From: an uncultured virus (IMG/VR IMGVR_UViG_2061766007_001878)
Taxonomy: Duplodnaviria > Heunggongvirae > Uroviricota > Caudoviricetes
Direction: 5' to 3' (one strand)
IMG/VR virus record: IMGVR_UViG_2061766007_001878
Length of the DNA: 20,000 nucleotides
The position numbers were made by a program, and so were the translations under genes. The notes beneath the pieces were generated by a model, which was not told the DNA's origin, made no database searches, and worked only from the letters and a program-made list of their open reading frames with translations. Positions 6,151-11,475 of this stretch are shown here, in pieces (position 1 is the stretch's first letter; every line of letters begins with the position of its first letter).

Positions 6151-7014
6151 ATGAGTGAAAATTCCCTCTCAAGACATGGTGCCGACGCACTGAAGAAATT
6201 CGAAACCACAAGCAACTCCTCAGAATTCACGAAGGATAACATTTGGTTCGACTGGGGCAACAAGGAAGAGCATGTCATCCGTATTGTTGGTGACTTCCGC
6301 ATCTCCCGCTCCCACTGGATTGGCGAAAGCAAGTTCGGCAACGACGTGGCTCTGCTTAATTCAGAAGCCTTCAAAGGCGACAAGAAACTCCCGATGACCG
6401 TCGCCTGCGGTAACTGGGATGCAGAATCCGAAACAGAAGACCCTGACGGCAATGCCTGCCCTGTCTGCCGTCTTGGTAAGAATGCCGACTTGATGCTGAA
6501 AAAGTATGGCAAAGAACTGGTCGAGACTGAAAAAGAGAAATTCAAAGCCATCCGCAGAAAGTGCCAGGCTAAGAGCCAGTACCTCTTCAAAATCATCGAC
6601 CGCGACAATCCTTACGTCGATGAGGAAAAGACCCGCAAGGGCTACAAGATTCTCCGTGCCCCTGAAAAGCTGTTGAAGGCTATTCTCGCCCTTTCCGACA
6701 GCATGGAAGGCATCGCCATCACTTCGCCAGATGAAGGAATCGACATCAAAATCAAGAAGACCGTTTCCGACAAGACGAAGACCGACGTGACTTATAGCGC
6801 ATTGGCTGTCATGGCTGGCGCGAAGGTCAAGCAGACTCCTTTGACAGATGAGGAAAAGGAATACCGCGACCTCGACTTGCTCAAGTTCGTCGGCAAGCCC
6901 GTTGACAAGGAGCGTTTCGAGGAAATGCTGTCGGACAAGAATTCCGTCCGCACGATTTATGAAAACGCCGACATTGACGCAGGCGATGACGAAGGCGGAA
7001 ACGCCCCGTTCTAA
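6151..7014 (+). CDS. Phage single-stranded DNA-binding protein, T4 gp32-like
   Basis: 287 aa. Has 'VIRIVG', a His...Cys...CPVC Zn-ligand pattern (SHW, VACG, ACPVC), 'YLFKIIDRD', 'EGIDIKIKK', and an acidic C-terminal tail ending in PF (DAGDDEGGNAPF). It lies directly upstream of recA. Confidence 0.8.
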   Translation: MSENSLSRHGADALKKFETTSNSSEFTKDNIWFDWGNKEEHVIRIVGDFRISRSHWIGESKFGNDVALLNSEAFKGDKKLPMTVACGNWDAESETEDPDGNACPVCRLGKNADLMLKKYGKELVETEKEKFKAIRRKCQAKSQYLFKIIDRDNPYVDEEKTRKGYKILRAPEKLLKAILALSDSMEGIAITSPDEGIDIKIKKTVSDKTKTDVTYSALAVMAGAKVKQTPLTDEEKEYRDLDLLKFVGKPVDKERFEEMLSDKNSVRTIYENADIDAGDDEGGNAPF

Positions 7015-7112: not shown

Positions 7113-7823
7113 ATGGCGAAAAAATTAGATGAATTGCTGAAAGGCAAGAAGGCAAGTGCTCCTGTCAATGCGAAGATGGCGAAAATCGCCGAGGCGTGCG
7201 CAATGCTTCAGAAGAAATTTGGTAAGGAAAGTGTCAATTTCCTTGGCAATAAGAAAGCGGAGCCATTGCCTCGTTTTTCAAGCGGTAGCATTGCGCTTGA
7301 CAAGATTCTCGGCGGTGGCTATCCAGAAGGTCGTATGATTGAAATCTTTGGACCAGCCTCCTCTGGTAAGACGACTATCTGTTATCATGCTCTTGCATCC
7401 ATTCAGAAGAAGTACCCTGACGACTGGTGCGGATTCGTGGATTCGGAGCAGTCTTTCGACCCGATTTATGCGGAATCCATCGGCGTGAACGTGGCTGAAC
7501 TCGTCACGGCACAGCCTGACACTGGTACGGATGCCTTCGGCATGGTTCAGGGCATGATTGAGTCTGGAGCGAAGGCGATTGTCATCGATTCCGTTGCCGC
7601 CATGATGCCAAAGGAAGAGGCAGAAGAGGAAGACTACGGGCATAATTCCATCGGTGCGCAAGCCCGAATGATGTCCAAAGGTCTTCGTAAGCTCACCGCA
7701 ATCGCTGGTAAGCACAAATGCACCTTGATATTTACTAATCAAATTCGTAATAAGATAGGTGTTATGTACGGTTCGCCCGAATGTGTGACGCTTGATACGA
7801 TGGTTGAAGTTGAATTTGAATAA
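7113..7823 (+). CDS. recA: RecA N-terminal half (223 aa extein) fused to a 13-aa split-intein N-fragment
   Basis: Walker A GPASSGKT, FVDSEQ, Walker B IVIDSVAA, QARMMSKGLRKL and LIFTNQIRNKIGVMYGSPE, then an abrupt switch to CVTLDTMVEVEFE-stop. AGGAG RBS lies upstream. Confidence 0.95.
   Translation: MAKKLDELLKGKKASAPVNAKMAKIAEACAMLQKKFGKESVNFLGNKKAEPLPRFSSGSIALDKILGGGYPEGRMIEIFGPASSGKTTICYHALASIQKKYPDDWCGFVDSEQSFDPIYAESIGVNVAELVTAQPDTGTDAFGMVQGMIESGAKAIVIDSVAAMMPKEEAEEEDYGHNSIGAQARMMSKGLRKLTAIAGKHKCTLIFTNQIRNKIGVMYGSPECVTLDTMVEVEFE
7782..7820 (+). mobile_element. Split intein N-fragment (IntN, block A only, 13 aa)
   Basis: Starts with Cys exactly after RecA ...GSPE. CVTLDTMV fits the block A pattern C-h-x-x-D-T-x-V. 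TAA follows at 7821-7823. Confidence 0.9.
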
Positions 7824-7835
7824 AAGTTTAACTTT

Positions 7836-7888
7836 TTGCTTATACTTCCAGTTATAGTATAAAATAACTATAACTGGAGGAATAGCAA
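7836..7888 (+). promoter_or_regulatory. RBS-sequestering hairpin with a TATAAAATA promoter-like element at its loop, upstream of the homing endonuclease
   Basis: CTTCCAGTTATAGT (7845-7858) pairs with ACTATAACTGGAGG (7867-7880) over 14 bp with one G-U, burying the GGAGG RBS. It can be extended imperfectly to the A of the ATG at 7888. Confidence 0.8.
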
Positions 7889-9240
7889 TGATTTTTTACT
7901 TTTATAAAATAACAAATCAAATCAACGGAAAGTATTACTTTGGTGTACATAGTACAAACAATATAAATGATGGCTACATGGGAAGTGGAGTCGCATTGAA
8001 ACGAGCATATAAAAAGTATGGGATTGGAAATTTTATCAAGGAAATTTTGTATTATTTTGACAATGCAGAAGAAATGTATGCGTTTGAAGAACAATATGTG
8101 AATGATGAACTTGTAAATGATTCTCAATGCTATAACATGGTAATTGGTGGTAGAAGTAAAAATACATCGATGCATTTGGGAAAATTGGCAAGTATTGCTT
8201 CTTCAAGAGAAGATGTAATTGCCAAAAGAAAAGAAAGCATTTATTTGTATTGGCATACAGGTGATGTAGAGGAGAAAAGGAGAAAGCAATCCGAAGGGAA
8301 TAAACGATATTGGACTACTGGTGATGTTGAAGCAAAAAAGCAACATCACTCAGAAGTTCAAAAAAGAAGTTATCAAGAACATCCTGAACGAAGAGAACGG
8401 ATACTTGCAAGATTAAAAGAAAGATATTCTGGTGAAGAAGGTGTGAAAACTCGTCGCAAGATAAGTGAATCACTTCGGAATAGTGAAGCTCATAAAGAAG
8501 CAATAATAAAATTAAAGGAAACTGCAAAAAGAGGAAAAGAAACAGCGGAATTCATTGTTCATTGGAAATCATTGTATGACCAAGATTCAGAAGAAATCTG
8601 TGAATTACTGAAACATTCCAATTTGCCAGAACGTTTTATTGTTGAAAAGCTTTATGGAAAGAAAGTTCATTTAGACCGATTGCTTTCTTATTATCATGAT
8701 GTCGGATTGTTGCCAGATGCCATTGATTCTGAAATCAAAACAAGATTTTTGAGATTGGATGATACAAATGGAAAAGGTCATAAAGACGGTACAAGTTTGA
8801 AAACTTTTTATACGAATGAATTGAAATACGATGTTTCTTTTTATTATGATGATTTTTTCAATCAATTTGAAATAATAAAGAAATTTATGCTTGATGATTC
8901 TATATCAGATAGTATGATTTTCAATAATGATGAGAACAGTAAACTCGTTCCAAATTTCAAACAAGTTGTTGAATATTTTCAGGATTTAGGAATTGTTTCC
9001 AATGTGCATGTCATATTAATACGAACACCAAAGACGGTACAAGGCAAGCATTTTACAGTGCCTGCCAAAAAAACCAAGTTTGATATTGATTACAAAGGTG
9101 TAAACAAAAAAATTCTAATTGACAAGGAGATGAATGAGTATGGAATTGATGACAATGGAAAAGCTTTTCGAAAAGGCAGGTTTGAACTGGAAATTAATGG
9201 AACAAAACGTTCCATACGATGTCAGTGGCAAAAACATTAA
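7888..9240 (+). CDS. Free-standing GIY-YIG homing endonuclease (T4 Seg-like) between the two split-intein halves
   Basis: The N-terminal YFYKITNQINGKYYFGVH..GYMGSG..LKRAYKKYGIGNFIKEIL..E..YN matches the Seg-type GIY-YIG domain. It is followed by basic helical repeats (YWxTGDVExK twice, 20-aa period). It is visibly AT-richer than the recA exteins. Confidence 0.9.
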   Translation: MIFYFYKITNQINGKYYFGVHSTNNINDGYMGSGVALKRAYKKYGIGNFIKEILYYFDNAEEMYAFEEQYVNDELVNDSQCYNMVIGGRSKNTSMHLGKLASIASSREDVIAKRKESIYLYWHTGDVEEKRRKQSEGNKRYWTTGDVEAKKQHHSEVQKRSYQEHPERRERILARLKERYSGEEGVKTRRKISESLRNSEAHKEAIIKLKETAKRGKETAEFIVHWKSLYDQDSEEICELLKHSNLPERFIVEKLYGKKVHLDRLLSYYHDVGLLPDAIDSEIKTRFLRLDDTNGKGHKDGTSLKTFYTNELKYDVSFYYDDFFNQFEIIKKFMLDDSISDSMIFNNDENSKLVPNFKQVVEYFQDLGIVSNVHVILIRTPKTVQGKHFTVPAKKTKFDIDYKGVNKKILIDKEMNEYGIDDNGKAFRKGRFELEINGTKRSIRCQWQKH

Positions 9241-9562
9241 GATTAAAAGTTTCAATCATCAGACAAATCAGAATGAAATGAAACGAATTTTGAACCTTGT
9301 TTATAAAGGTGATTATCCTATTTATAATCTTGTTGATAAACAGGGAGATATATTGCTGAAATGCTCTGGTGCTCATAGAATTTGGGATAATGCTACGGCA
9401 CAATATTATCATGTCCAAGATATTGAAGGCGGTACGGCTTTGACAAAGGCTGGTGAAAATGTTGAATTTTTTGTAAAACAAACAAAAGAAACTCATCCGA
9501 TTGTCGATATGGAAGTGGAAGGAAACTCCAATTATTTTACAAACGGAATTCTTTCGCATAAC
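9134..9562 (+). mobile_element. Split intein C-fragment (IntC; blocks B, F, G; no internal endonuclease)
   Basis: Ends with His-Asn (9557-9562), followed by the Thr +1 nucleophile (9563-9565). It lacks the N-terminal Cys and block A, which IntN supplies. Confidence 0.9.
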
Positions 9563-10063
9563 ACTACAACTGGTGGTAAGGCATTGGAATACTACGCTTC
9601 TGTCAGAATCCGCGTTTCCCAGTGCGGGAAGGTGGAAGACACGGTTGACGGCGAGAAGGTCATCACGGCTATTCAGACGCGCCTGACCACGAGCAAGAAC
9701 AAGACGTTTGCGCCGTTCAAGACTTGCGAAATCGTCATTCGCTTCGGTGAAGGCATCGACAACGACGCTGGCATCCTCGACCTCGCATTCCAATACGGAA
9801 TCATCACGAAGGGCGGTGGTGGCAACTACACCATCAACGGCGAGAAAATCAGAGGTCTTCCTGCATTGAAGGAATACCTTGAAAACAATCCAGAGCTGTA
9901 CGAGGAAATCAAGCAGAAGACCCGTGACGCGATGGAGAACGACAAGAAGGAGAACGTCGTGACGGAAGAGGAGGCTATCGATGCCGACTCCATGACGGAC
10001 GACGAAATCGCCGAAGCTGCCGAGGCAAGCGACAACGACGATGCCGAGACTGGCGAAGTCTAA
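9134..10063 (+). CDS. recA: Split-intein C-fragment (~143 aa) fused to RecA C-terminal half (166 aa extein)
   Basis: Intein block B-like LKCSGAHRIW and blocks F/G IVDMEVEGNSNYFTNGILSHN, then TTTGGKALEYYASVRIRV...KNKTFAPFK...FGEGID, which is the exact continuation of RecA after GSPE. It has an acidic tail and its own AAGGAG RBS at 9124-9129 (start 9134 or 9140). Confidence 0.95.
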   Translation: MSMELMTMEKLFEKAGLNWKLMEQNVPYDVSGKNIKIKSFNHQTNQNEMKRILNLVYKGDYPIYNLVDKQGDILLKCSGAHRIWDNATAQYYHVQDIEGGTALTKAGENVEFFVKQTKETHPIVDMEVEGNSNYFTNGILSHNTTTGGKALEYYASVRIRVSQCGKVEDTVDGEKVITAIQTRLTTSKNKTFAPFKTCEIVIRFGEGIDNDAGILDLAFQYGIITKGGGGNYTINGEKIRGLPALKEYLENNPELYEEIKQKTRDAMENDKKENVVTEEEAIDADSMTDDEIAEAAEASDNDDAETGEV

Positions 10064-10128: not shown

Positions 10129-10512
10129 ATGATGTTTATGTTCGCAATACAGGAATTGATACGGACAAGAATATCCAGAATCGCCAATGAGATGAATCAG
10201 GAATGGCTGAGAAGCAATGTGCGTGAATTGGATGATTCATTTCCGCAATTCGCAGTCATCTCTCTTGAAAAGAAGCATGAACTGGTTATAAAGCACAATG
10301 CCATTGACATGGACGCAAAGACGTTTGGATATAATCCGCTCGCCCCAGAATGGTTTTTCGTGTTCCACATAATTGGCTCGAAACGCATTTTGAAGAGGAA
10401 ATGGTCGAATCACATCATGGACGGAATAGAGTATTTCATGGCGAATCTTTCCCAGCGCGATTCGGAGACTTTGTGGCAATGGTATCTGGAGAATAACGGC
10501 GATGGAAGATGA
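10129..10512 (+). CDS. Hypothetical protein, paralog family A copy 1
   Basis: AAGGAG RBS. The C-terminal motif KWSNHIMDGIEYF...DSETLWQWY is shared with the next three genes. Confidence 0.8.
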   Translation: MMFMFAIQELIRTRISRIANEMNQEWLRSNVRELDDSFPQFAVISLEKKHELVIKHNAIDMDAKTFGYNPLAPEWFFVFHIIGSKRILKRKWSNHIMDGIEYFMANLSQRDSETLWQWYLENNGDGR

Positions 10513-10801
10513 TTTCGAAGAAAAGCTGTTCAGTGATTTTTTCCGTGAGCATCTGCGTCATATAGCCCATATCGAGCTGACGGACGGGGTTCTGAGCATC
10601 ATAAAGGATTTGAATGACGGGATGTACTTGTTTCTCTATAAGAAAAACAAATCTGAAACAATAGACGACATGTGGTACAACAATCTTTTTGAAGGCATAG
10701 ACGATTACGTGAATATGCTCGACGAAAAGGACGGCGAGCTAATATGGGAGTGGTATGGTTCTGGACAAGTGGAGGAAAATGATGAGCCTGTCGGAAAGTA
10801 A
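10502..10801 (+). CDS. Hypothetical protein, paralog family A copy 2
   Basis: Overlaps the previous gene. Motif MWYNNLFEGIDDY...DGELIWEWY. Confidence 0.8.
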   Translation: MEDDFEEKLFSDFFREHLRHIAHIELTDGVLSIIKDLNDGMYLFLYKKNKSETIDDMWYNNLFEGIDDYVNMLDEKDGELIWEWYGSGQVEENDEPVGK

Positions 10802-11171
10802 GAGGAATGAACTTATTGACAAGTTGGCGGACATGTTGAGGGATGACATCATCAAGGAACAGGACAGGTACTTTTCCGATGTGCTGGAAAAGAATTTCTT
10901 CGAGCGGGATTTGTTCTCCATCAAGCTGTCTAGGGAACGCACGCTGTATGTGAAGGTCATCGGCAATGGCGACAACGCGCATTATTCGTTCGACTTGTTC
11001 GGCGACAGGGACGGGTTCCCCATCATGGGCAAGTGGTTCAACGACCTGATGAGCGGAATCGAATACTGCATGAGCGAGCTGGAAGAGGACTGTGAGACCA
11101 TCTGGAATGCGTTTCTGGAATATAATGAGAAACATGGAAGGAATCATGCTGACAGTGCCGATGACAATTGA
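10779..11171 (+). CDS. Hypothetical protein, paralog family A copy 3
   Basis: GGAGG at 10771-10775 supports a start at 10779 or 10782 rather than 10755. Motif KWFNDLMSGIEYC...DCETIWNAF. Confidence 0.8.
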   Translation: MMSLSESKRNELIDKLADMLRDDIIKEQDRYFSDVLEKNFFERDLFSIKLSRERTLYVKVIGNGDNAHYSFDLFGDRDGFPIMGKWFNDLMSGIEYCMSELEEDCETIWNAFLEYNEKHGRNHADSADDN

Positions 11172-11475
11172 TGACTCCGACCTGCTGATGCTCAAGGTGG
11201 AGATTGAATATGCGATGCGTGGAATGGAATTGGTTGAACGAAACATCTTTTCATTGTCCAGCAGGCGGTTCAAGGCGAAAATCGGCGTGGTGGACAATGC
11301 AGGCAAGTTCGTGGAGCATCCAGCATACCATTTTGTCTTTTCGGAGAAGAACGAAGAGACTGGTCGGTGGTTTGAAAGGCTCTTCGAGGGCGTGGAATGG
11401 ATGATGCAGAAGGTGGACGGTAGGAATTGCGACAAAATCTTTGAGTGGTATACAAACTATGACGGAAAACATTGA
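11146..11475 (+). CDS. Hypothetical protein, paralog family A copy 4
   Basis: GGAAGGA precedes ATG 11146, in frame with ORF 11092..11475. Motif RWFERLFEGVEWM...NCDKIFEWY. Confidence 0.8.
   Translation: MLTVPMTIDDSDLLMLKVEIEYAMRGMELVERNIFSLSSRRFKAKIGVVDNAGKFVEHPAYHFVFSEKNEETGRWFERLFEGVEWMMQKVDGRNCDKIFEWYTNYDGKH

Follow-up and report, generated by a model that had tools for sequence, protein, structure and literature searches.

The recA locus and its interruption

The window, i.e. the whole 20,000 nt stretch of DNA analysed here, comes from an uncultured rumen phage whose gene for the RecA recombinase lies in two ORFs on the plus strand. The first (7113-7823, 236 aa) matches Pfam PF00154 over profile positions 3-203 of 262 (E 5e-67) and consists of a 223-aa N-extein (7113..7781; PHROG 97, UvsX-like, E 2e-58), which ends ...GVMYGSPE in the DNA-binding loop L2, and a short front piece of an intein (IntN). 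The second (9134/9140-10063) encodes 141 intein residues (IntC) ending SHN at 9562, followed by the C-extein of 166 aa plus stop (9563..10063), which starts TTTGGKAL and matches PF00154 at profile positions 198-262 (E 1e-11) as well as RecA_C (37.7 bits, E 2e-9). The two adjacent ORFs jointly cover the whole of RecA (profile 3-203 plus 198-262). Both score above the Pfam RecA threshold, and each piece alone misses the TIGR02012 equivalog cut-off of 325 (225 and 83 bits).

The interruption is a 1781-bp insert, in frame, at GSPE|TTTGG. The initial annotation had delimited an AT-rich block at 7782-9562, and these coordinates prove exact. GC content is 0.30 in IntN and the spacer behind it, 0.32 in the endonuclease gene and 0.34 in IntC, against 0.49 and 0.54 in the exteins; GC3 is 0.24 and 0.31 in the cassette against 0.53 and 0.70. 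The cassette is lower in GC than its exteins at all five loci where one of this kind was found (the window, L001, L002, L006 and L111). In a consensus scan sigma-70-like promoters were not in excess (13, against 8.3 +/- 3.3 expected) and no terminator was seen, and no tRNA genes are present in the window, L001, L002 or L006.

An intein broken after thirteen residues

IntN comprises 13 codons (CVTLDTMVEVEFE) and a TAA stop (7782..7823, plus strand). The same length and a near-identical sequence are found in L001, L002 and L006, with Cys1 invariant in all four. IntC (9140..9562, plus strand; alternative start at 9134) carries blocks B, F and G and is matched by NCBIfam intein_Cterm (24.7 bits, cut-off 15.6), while Pfam Intein_splicing remains below threshold on the intein (18.1 vs 35.8). 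All 19 homologues in alignment A1 share S76-x-x-H79, D123, H140-N141 and a Thr at +1. Position 1 Cys, block B, the block F Asp, the terminal His-Asn and the +1 nucleophile are those of a class 1 intein (HINT domain). Among solved chains IntC comes closest to the Spl DnaX mini-intein (E 9e-4), and no LAGLIDADG family matches IntC, as had been noted from the sequence at the outset. The start ATG at 9140 (MELMTME...) is kept in L001, L002 and L006 and, within A1, in 10 of 19 rows; the Shine-Dalgarno that precedes it, AAGGAG (9124..9129, plus strand, read from the sequence), lies inside the endonuclease ORF.

Eight relatives (P0008, P0023, P0041, P0045, P0052, P0062, P0064 and P0066) have unbroken inteins, to which the 13-aa IntN and the 141-aa IntC can be aligned over their full length. 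All eight run uninterrupted through the break point, as in P0008 (...TMVEV-N-MELMTMEKLF...). The AlphaFold (AF2) model of P0008, of moderate quality (mean pLDDT 67.6; 65-84 around the break), places a strand at 228-231 (MVEV), a strand at 234-237 (ELMT) and a helix at 238-244, with the break at 231/233. As modelled, the intein is broken in the beta2/beta3 turn, directly after strand beta2, i.e. at the atypical split site S1 as this is defined in the available text of PMC13014065.

The endonuclease gene, its overlap and its hairpin

Between the intein parts begins a free-standing GIY-YIG homing endonuclease gene (7888..9240, plus strand, 450 aa). The protein has an I-TevI-like catalytic domain (about residues 1-90), a helical linker and a family-specific C-terminal half. 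The evidence for its class is threefold: a match to PHROG 314 'homing endonuclease' (E 8e-36), a gene start whose first 240 nt are approximately 70% identical to seg-like genes of the T4 type, and a fold match to I-TevI. It is because of these, and not of Pfam GIY-YIG PF01541, which stays below threshold (15.8 bits vs 22.6), that the assignment is made. In an AF2 model (pLDDT 87) the N-domain aligns over 82 residues with 1ln0_A, the catalytic domain of I-TevI (VIA Z 7.1, rmsd 3.0), and Foldseek relates the catalytic domain to 1mk0 with probability 1.00. Residues Y6, Y17, E67 and N83 are near-invariant in an alignment of 22 endonuclease sequences. The Seg-like GIY-YIG ORF of the initial annotation is thus retained in type and length, with the qualifications that the Pfam score is sub-threshold and that the ORF does not lie wholly between the intein parts, its 3' end overlapping IntC.

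The C-terminal half (about residues 225-450) gives no Pfam or NCBIfam match, PHROG matches stop by about residue 230, and Foldseek against the PDB returns nothing past the I-TevI domain. Winged-helix-like rows only, at Z 4-5 (VIA-align), are obtained for residues 220-312 and are at most suggestive of a DNA-binding function. Only 19 clusters among 5.8 billion proteins are homologous to this half, and at least 8 of them derive from a source contig of equal size to that of a split RecA hit. A homologous N-domain occurs in 79 viral loci, of which 77 match that domain alone and two reach only residue 247; recA and the C-terminal half are absent from all 79. The C-terminal half was found only beside split recA inteins.

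The last 101 nt of the endonuclease gene (9140..9240, plus strand) are dual-coding, lying in the +2 frame relative to IntC over its first 33 codons. Equivalent overlaps measure 89 nt in L001, 89 in L002, 137 in L006 and 68 in L111. In the window, L001, L002 and L006 the overlap frame is open for 28-44 codons and then meets 8-23 stops over the rest of IntC, and the tail motif YGIDDNG...F.L.I.G is conserved.

Upstream of the endonuclease start lies an RNA hairpin (7837..7887, plus strand) whose 3' arm (7867-7880) holds the Shine-Dalgarno GGAGG of that gene (7876-7880). Its folding energy is -25.3 kcal/mol (z -6.8), a stability reached by 0/200 shuffles. The equivalent hairpins of L001, L002 and L006 give z of -5.0, -8.2 and -4.6 with differing stem sequences; the hairpins are conserved in structure and not in sequence. 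I-TevI has its translation restrained by an RNA hairpin, and it cleaves 23-25 nt upstream of its insertion site. In L001 the endonuclease gene is interrupted by 11 in-frame TAG codons, mostly at positions where homologues have glutamate.

Split, unbroken and empty alleles

The same kind of cassette, in which a homologous GIY-YIG gene follows an IntN of 12-13 aa and overlaps IntC, is present in L001, L002, L006 and L111, the last with the 12-aa IntN, although the N-exteins of these four are just 44-76% identical to that of the window. Among 104 protein hits, eight are RecAs with an unbroken intein and about 50 begin inside the intein; these protein clusters count as further members with the split form. 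Metagenome loci, gathered with the N-extein as query, show no intein in 69 of 70 cases, and the six closest of these relatives (81-95% aa identity) are all intein-less. One intein-less locus, L091, is collinear with the window at 84-89% nt identity and differs by a clean indel. L091, L086 and L088 have Val at +1, and L087 is a further empty allele. The search for empty, contiguous and split alleles proposed with the initial annotation returned all three: the six closest empty, eight contiguous and four further split contigs. A single IntC-RecA protein as query of viral contigs retrieved no relatives, and an alignment-based search was needed; none of 50,697 GenBank phage records was matched by tblastn with IntC or with the C-terminal half of the endonuclease.

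Intein and extein similarity are discordant, as is shown by P0019 (IntC 83%, C-extein 52% identical), P0008 (82% and 52%) and P0004 (74% and 83%), and the intein is conserved better than the C-extein. In the intein tree split and contiguous forms are interleaved. Branches with strong support require at least 3 changes between them, and parsimony counts 6-7; a single clade for the eight contiguous forms is rejected (p-AU 9e-5). In L003 a related intein holds an unrelated 321-aa ORF at the corresponding break point, which has no match in Pfam, PHROGs, NCBIfam or PDB sequences. In its motifs this ORF may be similar to the Vsr-like endonucleases known from fractured genes (Dassa et al. 2009).

The split arose before this phage, which received an already-split cassette, and the split form is the prevailing one in a large family. 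The proposal made at the outset, that an endonuclease had invaded a mini-intein directly behind block A, agrees with the eight contiguous relatives and with the P0008 model, but the split was not born in this phage.

The empty allele and a patch beside the insertion site

The N-extein is identical to the intein-less RecA P0017 at 220 of 223 residues, and all three differences fall at -7, -6 and -3. By our own arithmetic the chance that three differences lie within 7 residues of the junction is about 3e-5. The C-extein is identical at 159 of 166 residues, the first difference being at residue +88. At the DNA level, a contig from DNA run X9 tracks the window up to 7717 with 6 other letters in 185, then diverges, and rejoins at 9569; its letters just before 9569 read G-I-L-Y-G-N-P-E-T-T. 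The stretch between 7717 and the junction is a probable co-conversion tract (7718..7781, plus strand), the last approximately 64 nt of the N-extein, with AT-rich third codon positions and dense differences from the empty allele. By our count, 23 of 60 visible letters differ there between X9 and the window, compared to 0.4-3.8% in the flanks, and the changes are mostly synonymous.

Such a patch beside the insertion site is probably the co-conversion signature of homing, a reading based on a single lineage of empty alleles (P0017 with X9) and on 60 letters of its DNA; a synonymous patch could also come from recombination unrelated to the endonuclease. The initial annotation had suggested that intein and endonuclease home together into intein-less recA, and both the six closest empty alleles and the patch lend support to this idea. 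DNA run X4, from an independent study, yields contigs reading across each of the two junctions of the occupied allele. RNA-library contigs X3 and X5 hold endonuclease parts and the IntC-extein junction, which may be DNA carry-over and is no proof of transcription. In the four runs no joint across the cassette is reported, and the empty allele appears as loose ends only.

A probable mobile cassette with predicted trans-splicing

Taken from the sequence, 7782-9562 is very probably one mobile cassette: a class-1 mini-intein broken at S1 by a GIY-YIG gene, with predicted trans-splicing and homing as a unit. The predicted products are RecA(1-223) carrying the 13-residue IntN and the 141-residue IntC carrying RecA(224-389). 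IntN would dock into IntC, the HINT domain would reassemble, and trans-splicing would give the normal 389-aa RecA. The endonuclease may cut the uninterrupted recA of a relative, probably no more than about 64 nt upstream of where the cassette inserts, and repair from the occupied allele would then bring in the whole cassette together with a short stretch of flanking extein. Judged from sequence and folding, the hairpin that buries the ribosome-binding site may hold down translation of the endonuclease, while IntC is predicted to be translated from its own Shine-Dalgarno inside the endonuclease ORF.

A possible but rather unlikely alternative is that the endonuclease homes alone, on the unbroken intein gene at the beta2/beta3 turn and not on empty recA, the intein spreading otherwise and the two being only loosely associated. 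The interleaving of split and contiguous inteins, with rejection of one contiguous clade, fits this, as does the placement of the endonuclease at the identical intein point in all five GIY-YIG loci, with the unrelated ORF of L003 there as well. Against it, the alternative allele in the lineage of the window is without any intein, and the differences sit in the extein; therefore, in this lineage the cassette must have travelled, or been lost, in its entirety. Solo homing on the intein and homing of the unit do not exclude each other.

That the two RecA pieces work unligated, in non-covalent association as is reported of NrdA in phage Aeh1, which is split by an endonuclease, with the intein parts as relics, is improbable. 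Endonuclease-fractured genes without an intein do exist (PMC2677866; PMC3045599). Here, however, all splicing residues, Cys1 included, are invariant among homologues 45-95% identical, the intein is better kept than the C-extein, and the break falls within L2, a conserved loop. More improbable still is that the arrangement is a chimera of the assembly, or that recA is in decay and without function: the window does come from an uncultured metagenome assembly with a masked N run elsewhere, but the X4 contigs from another study bridge the same junctions, the cassette is seen in four other contigs of different collections, and both exteins are undamaged, with 96-99% identity to an uninterrupted RecA. 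Least credible is a group I intron with a GIY-YIG ORF and restoration of the intein frame in the RNA; phage group I introns often house GIY-YIG genes and recA introns are known (PMC2677866), but the stop after IntN is conserved, a separate Shine-Dalgarno and ATG serve IntC, about 100 nt at the end of the endonuclease ORF lie within IntC, the would-be exon, and a Rfam 15 scan of 7600-9700 with permissive filters and E up to 10 found no intron family and no group I intron core.

An extension of the cassette reading is offered tentatively, and is doubtful at present: the break may be both reversible and regulated. The endonuclease would enter and leave the same turn repeatedly (at least 3, probably 6-7 switches), with a functional intein, split or unbroken, as the outcome every time, its expression would be gated by the hairpin shared by four loci, and the L001 copy would be TAG-gated, either dependent on suppression or read with TAG as Glu. 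No handle for natural trans-splicing shorter than these 12-13 aa pieces would then be known.

Comparison with known systems

Fractured genes, with a split intein and a free-standing endonuclease of GIY-YIG or Vsr-like type, were described by Dassa et al. 2009 (PMC2677866). In those as here, a phage DNA-metabolism gene lies in adjacent ORFs with IntN and IntC and an endonuclease gene between, and that paper likewise notes overlapping frames, and hairpins ahead of the endonuclease gene. The initial annotation had recognised this layout, which is borne out by the two RecA ORFs, the IntN/IntC pair and the endonuclease ORF. The endonuclease type is not new, GIY-YIG being already among the fractured genes of that paper. 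The difference lies in the host genes, which in the available text of PMC2677866 are gp41, IMPDH, DnaE, NrdA, NrdJ, ligase and terminase, and here RecA; in the literature searched no fractured or naturally split recA was found.

By the position of the break, the nearest counterparts are the S1-split natural inteins VidaL (16-aa IntN) and PolB16 OarG (15-aa, sheep gut metagenome; PMC13014065, PMC10189870). They share with the recA intein a break right after beta2, a very short IntN, a long IntC and a metagenomic, phage-like source, and PolB16 and the recA intein family both come from the ruminant gut. In contrast, AceL NrdHF is split canonically, with a 98-aa IntN and a 48-aa IntC (PMC7891396), where the present break follows 13 residues. 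The front piece of 13 aa (12 in L111) lies below the natural range of 15-37 aa given in the available text of PMC13014065 and PMC10189870. Split inteins with natural front pieces of 15-16 aa and artificial ones of 11 aa do splice (PMC13014065). The recA intein further differs from the cysteine-less PolB16 in its Cys1/Thr+1 and in its host gene.

Actinobacterial RecA inteins, e.g. that of the Micromonospora locus L012, sit in the same L2-loop segment of RecA. The L012 intein lies three residues upstream (MFG|SPETTTGG, Ser +1), is contiguous and has a large internal insert, with about 440 residues overall; it is a different intein family. Two phage relatives, P0044 and P0010, have their inteins at this upstream site as well. 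The endonuclease resembles I-TevI and the T4 Seg-type enzymes in its catalytic fold and in its two-part build of catalytic domain and separate C-terminal half, but differs from them in that its own C-terminal half (about residues 225-450) is without a library match.

The locus is a well-supported instance of a known layout, to which it adds recA as a host, front pieces of 12-13 aa and clear traces of a probable recent homing event. The loci form a large undescribed family in which stages of a homing cycle stand side by side, namely empty alleles, contiguous mini-inteins, split inteins with an endonuclease and a TAG-interrupted endonuclease copy, and in which a probable co-conversion scar is visible in a natural phage population. 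With these the gene-breaking model of Dassa et al. 2009 (PMC2677866), which was built on far fewer loci, becomes testable. Short front pieces are sought in protein chemistry because they can be synthesised chemically; against a natural minimum of 15 residues in the available published text, the family offers pieces of 12-13 residues in dozens of variants. The L2 loop of RecA emerges as a hot spot, in which at least two intein families occupy three neighbouring positions.

Organization of the split recA locus

The window looks like a portion of an uncultured phage genome. It includes a tape-measure-like ORF of 1756 aa, within which a masked run of N (672-764) is translated as X, and a gene for a gp32-like single-strand-binding protein (6151-7014) upstream of recA. 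The first recA ORF (7113-7823; Pfam RecA, E 5e-67) encodes RecA residues 1-223 (ExtN) and then, from 7782, 13 intein residues (IntN), CVTLDTMVEVEFE, followed by a stop. The second (9134/9140-10063) encodes 141 intein residues (IntC) ending in GILSHN at 9562, then TTTGGKAL and the remainder of RecA (ExtC) with the RecA C-terminal domain. Between the two lies an endonuclease ORF of 450 aa (7888-9240), within which the IntC Shine-Dalgarno is located. The limits of the block proposed in the initial annotation, 7782-9562, proved exact to the base, and the block is AT-rich as claimed, with GC of 0.30-0.34 (exteins 0.49 and 0.54) and GC3 of 0.24-0.31 (exteins 0.53-0.70).

At 10129-11475 are four successive, partly overlapping small ORFs (127, 99, 138, and 127 aa), all ending in a similar Trp/Tyr-rich motif and by appearance tandem paralogues. 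The two scanned had no Pfam match; against PHROGs, the 99-aa ORF gave a weak match (phrog_18290, E 0.004) and the other three gave none.

The endonuclease

The Pfam GIY-YIG model was sub-threshold on the 450-aa ORF. Its reading as a Seg-like GIY-YIG endonuclease is nonetheless supported by PHROG 314 ‘homing endonuclease’ (E 8e-36), by 66-71% identity of the first ~240 nt of the gene to seg-like genes of T4-type phages, and by a predicted structure (pLDDT 87) in which residues 2-86 match the I-TevI catalytic domain (Z 7.1, rmsd 3.0; Foldseek probability 1.00). In the predicted layout the catalytic domain is followed by a long helical linker and a C-terminal half with weak, winged-helix-like fold matches (Z 4-5). 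This half is rare, with 19 homologous clusters among 5.8 billion proteins, all of 310-463 aa, at least 8 of which come from contigs equal in length to that of a split RecA match. None of 79 viral loci with a homologous catalytic domain carried recA or the C-terminal half; 77 match the N-terminal domain only, and the other two match only to residue 247. Neither IntC nor the C-terminal half had a match in 50,697 GenBank phage records. We infer that the C-terminal half sets the target specificity of the endonuclease.

At 9238 the endonuclease stop TAA reads CAA in runs X3 (RNA) and X4 (DNA), so that the ORF reaches deeper into IntC, as it does in homologues P0105-P0108.

Empty alleles and traces of movement

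In the six closest recA relatives of the metagenome collection (81-95% aa), ExtN runs straight into ExtC in every case, and among 70 metagenome loci only L111 has the cassette. One empty contig, L091, aligns collinearly with the window (84-89% nt on either side) and is missing exactly 7782-9562. P0017, an uninterrupted RecA, is identical to the window at 220 of 223 ExtN and 159 of 166 ExtC residues; counted from the insertion point, its three differences on the N side are at -7, -6, and -3, and the earliest on the C side is at +88. DNA run X9 agrees with the window, apart from 6 letters in 185, as far as 7717, then diverges and rejoins at 9569, its letters before 9569 reading G-I-L-Y-G-N-P-E-T-T, the P0017-type empty junction. 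Within the X9 patch, 23 of 60 visible letters, counted by eye, differ from the window, nearly all of them synonymous, and the flanks differ by 0.4-3.8%. The corresponding window patch is AT-rich at third positions, cassette-like. Such a patch would be expected from gene conversion following a double-strand break, with the cassette copied together with ~64 nt of upstream extein from the donor and no more than 6 nt downstream. This asymmetry suggests cleavage on the upstream side of the insertion site. In I-TevI, the cut lies 23-25 nt upstream of the enzyme's own site.

Similarity to the window also disagrees between IntC and ExtC, at 83% versus 52% in P0019 and 82% versus 52% in P0008, a relative with an unbroken intein; in P0004 and P0002 IntC is 74-75% and ExtC 83%.

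Three of the six closest empty alleles (L091:4670, L086:4676, L088:995) have Val for Thr at the would-be +1 position (PE|VTTGG). By its residues, such a site would not allow an intein to splice unless the Val were co-converted, and these alleles may thus be refractory.

Split and unbroken inteins

A search of 5.8 billion proteins gave 104 matches, of which 8 are RecAs of 504-534 aa with the same intein unbroken and ~50 begin within the intein, like the second ORF of the window; the others are intein-less or have a different intein. With the six empty alleles, all three states that the initial annotation proposed to seek in relatives (empty, contiguous, and split) were found. The alternatives over which ALTERNATIVES stands are a group I intron, unligated RecA, an assembly artefact, and an endonuclease directed at the unbroken intein and not at empty recA; the last is possible as a second route.

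On a first tree, built from the IntC-equivalent region with 53 split and 9 contiguous rows, contiguous forms are scattered, with at least three state changes forced by branches of at least 95% support and seven by parsimony, and P0008 groups with the window in a 98% clade. In a second tree, built without the columns of IntN and the linker and without rows L003, L111, and the two longest of the P series, a single clade for the 8 contiguous forms costs 154 log-likelihood units (p-AU 9e-5). The endonuclease gene has thus entered or left the intein turn several times, gain and loss not being distinguishable on a tree with no reliable root. The proposal that the endonuclease caused the split accordingly holds at the level of the family and not for this individual phage. 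In L003, a viral contig, a related intein in a UvsX-like gene is interrupted after 16 residues by a 321-aa ORF with no match in any library searched; this structural point thus accepts different inserts.

Intein anatomy and the break site

Cys1 is invariant in 4/4 N-pieces, as are S76-x-x-H79 (block B), D123 (block F), H140-N141, and Thr+1 in 19/19 homologues (45-95% identical). Together the two parts hold all residues required for class-1 splicing. IntC passed the cut-off of the NCBIfam intein C-terminal model, the window intein was below threshold for Pfam Intein_splicing, and among solved chains the nearest in sequence is the Spl DnaX mini-intein (E 9e-4). A RecA working as two unligated pieces is unlikely, since the splicing residues are invariant and the break falls inside loop L2. 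A group I intron was rejected: Rfam gave no match, and the stop, the Shine-Dalgarno and ATG, and the overlapping ORFs count against it.

The unbroken P0008 reads TMVEV-N-MELMTMEKLFEKAGLNWK, in which window IntN residues 1-10 are joined almost directly to the window IntC start. In its AlphaFold model (mean pLDDT 67.6; 65-84 around the break site) MVEV and ELMT form consecutive strands and MEKLFEK a helix, so the break sits in the turn after beta2. Modeled in this way, the break is the S1 position of PMC13014065 (2026), the same break that this paper describes for VidaL (16-aa IntN) and PolB16 (15-aa IntN). There, natural atypical front pieces span 15-37 aa, with 15 called the record, whereas the front piece has 13 aa in the window and 12 in L111.

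The cassette at other loci

Contigs from the independent DNA run X4 span both junctions of the occupied allele at ~96-97% identity; these and four other cassette contigs rule out an assembly artefact. The four are viral contigs L001 and L002, L006 (binned with a goat-stomach Victivallales MAG), and metagenome contig L111. All have recA-N with a 12-13-aa IntN and a homologous GIY-YIG gene whose 3' end overlaps an IntC starting MELMTME or similar, yet their ExtN is only 44-76% identical to that of the window. The overlap is 68-137 nt. In the window, L001, L002, and L006, 28-44 IntC codons can be read in the endonuclease frame without a stop, and 8-23 stops follow across the remainder, a pattern that argues for maintenance of the tail. 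Its motif YGIDDNG..F....F.L.I.G is conserved. A strong hairpin lies upstream of the endonuclease start in 4/4 loci, its 3' arm containing the endonuclease Shine-Dalgarno (z -4.6 to -8.2; shuffles as good, 0/200 in each). The stems differ in sequence between loci, thus the structure is what is kept. Cassette GC is below extein GC in 5/5 loci, e.g. 40% in the L006 endonuclease gene and 62-69% in its exteins.

The L001 endonuclease homologue (L001:2749-4089; contig 27% GC) has 446 codons with 11 in-frame TAG, no TAA/TGA, and no frameshift; recA, IntC, and the SSB gene of the contig are without in-frame TAG. In a 22-sequence family alignment, 101 of the 226 filled cells in the TAG columns are Glu (background 8%) and just 8 are Gln, and the gene uses GAA 19, GAG 1, and TAG 11 times. 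It may be suppression-dependent or imported from a recoded phage, or TAG may be read as a Glu-like residue. The same recA N-piece has a second, contiguous intein (L001:702-2687) in the Walker A motif (GPASSGK|C...HN|TTFCYHA; Pfam LAGLIDADG_3 E 8e-17, Intein_splicing E 3e-16), making two inteins in one recA.

Relation to known systems

The split recA cassette is real and well supported, and belongs to an already known type. The fractured-gene layout recognized in the initial annotation matches Dassa et al. 2009 (PMC2677866), who already place GIY-YIG endonucleases among fractured genes, note such hairpins too, and name as hosts gp41, IMPDH, DnaE, NrdA, NrdJ, ligase, and terminase. AceL NrdHF (PMC7891396) is a further GIY-YIG case. 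As far as literature searches show, recA as a fractured host gene, the PE|TTT insertion site, the family size, the dedicated endonuclease C-terminal half, and the visible co-conversion scar are new, as is the 12-13-aa front piece relative to literature other than the original VidaL description. The chief value of the family is as a rich natural series in which the breaking and re-joining of inteins by endonucleases can be studied, and as a supply of natural split-intein handles of very short length.

Neighboring insertion points in the L2 loop

The L2 loop is thus a hot spot for inteins, which use at least three neighboring insertion points in it. The window site, PE|TTT, is three residues downstream of that in Micromonospora RecA (L012:2156-4534), P0044, and P0010, which have a different intein at MFG|SPE with Ser+1. 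P0044 and P0010 are close phage relatives of the window recA (88% identity for P0010 across the C-terminal portion that aligns), and some inteins at this site have a large internal insert with LAGLIDADG-like sequence, identified by eye. In the 184-kb contig L003 (1539-4669) the UvsX-like gene has two related inteins separated by seven residues, the first being the split one and the second contiguous, at the site equivalent to that of the window (DPY|TTSGG). In P0041 (contiguous) and L111:128-2868 (split, 12-aa IntN) the same intein family lies two residues on (ETT|TGG versus PE|TTTGG), apparently sliding along the Thr-Thr-Thr run with Thr kept at +1.
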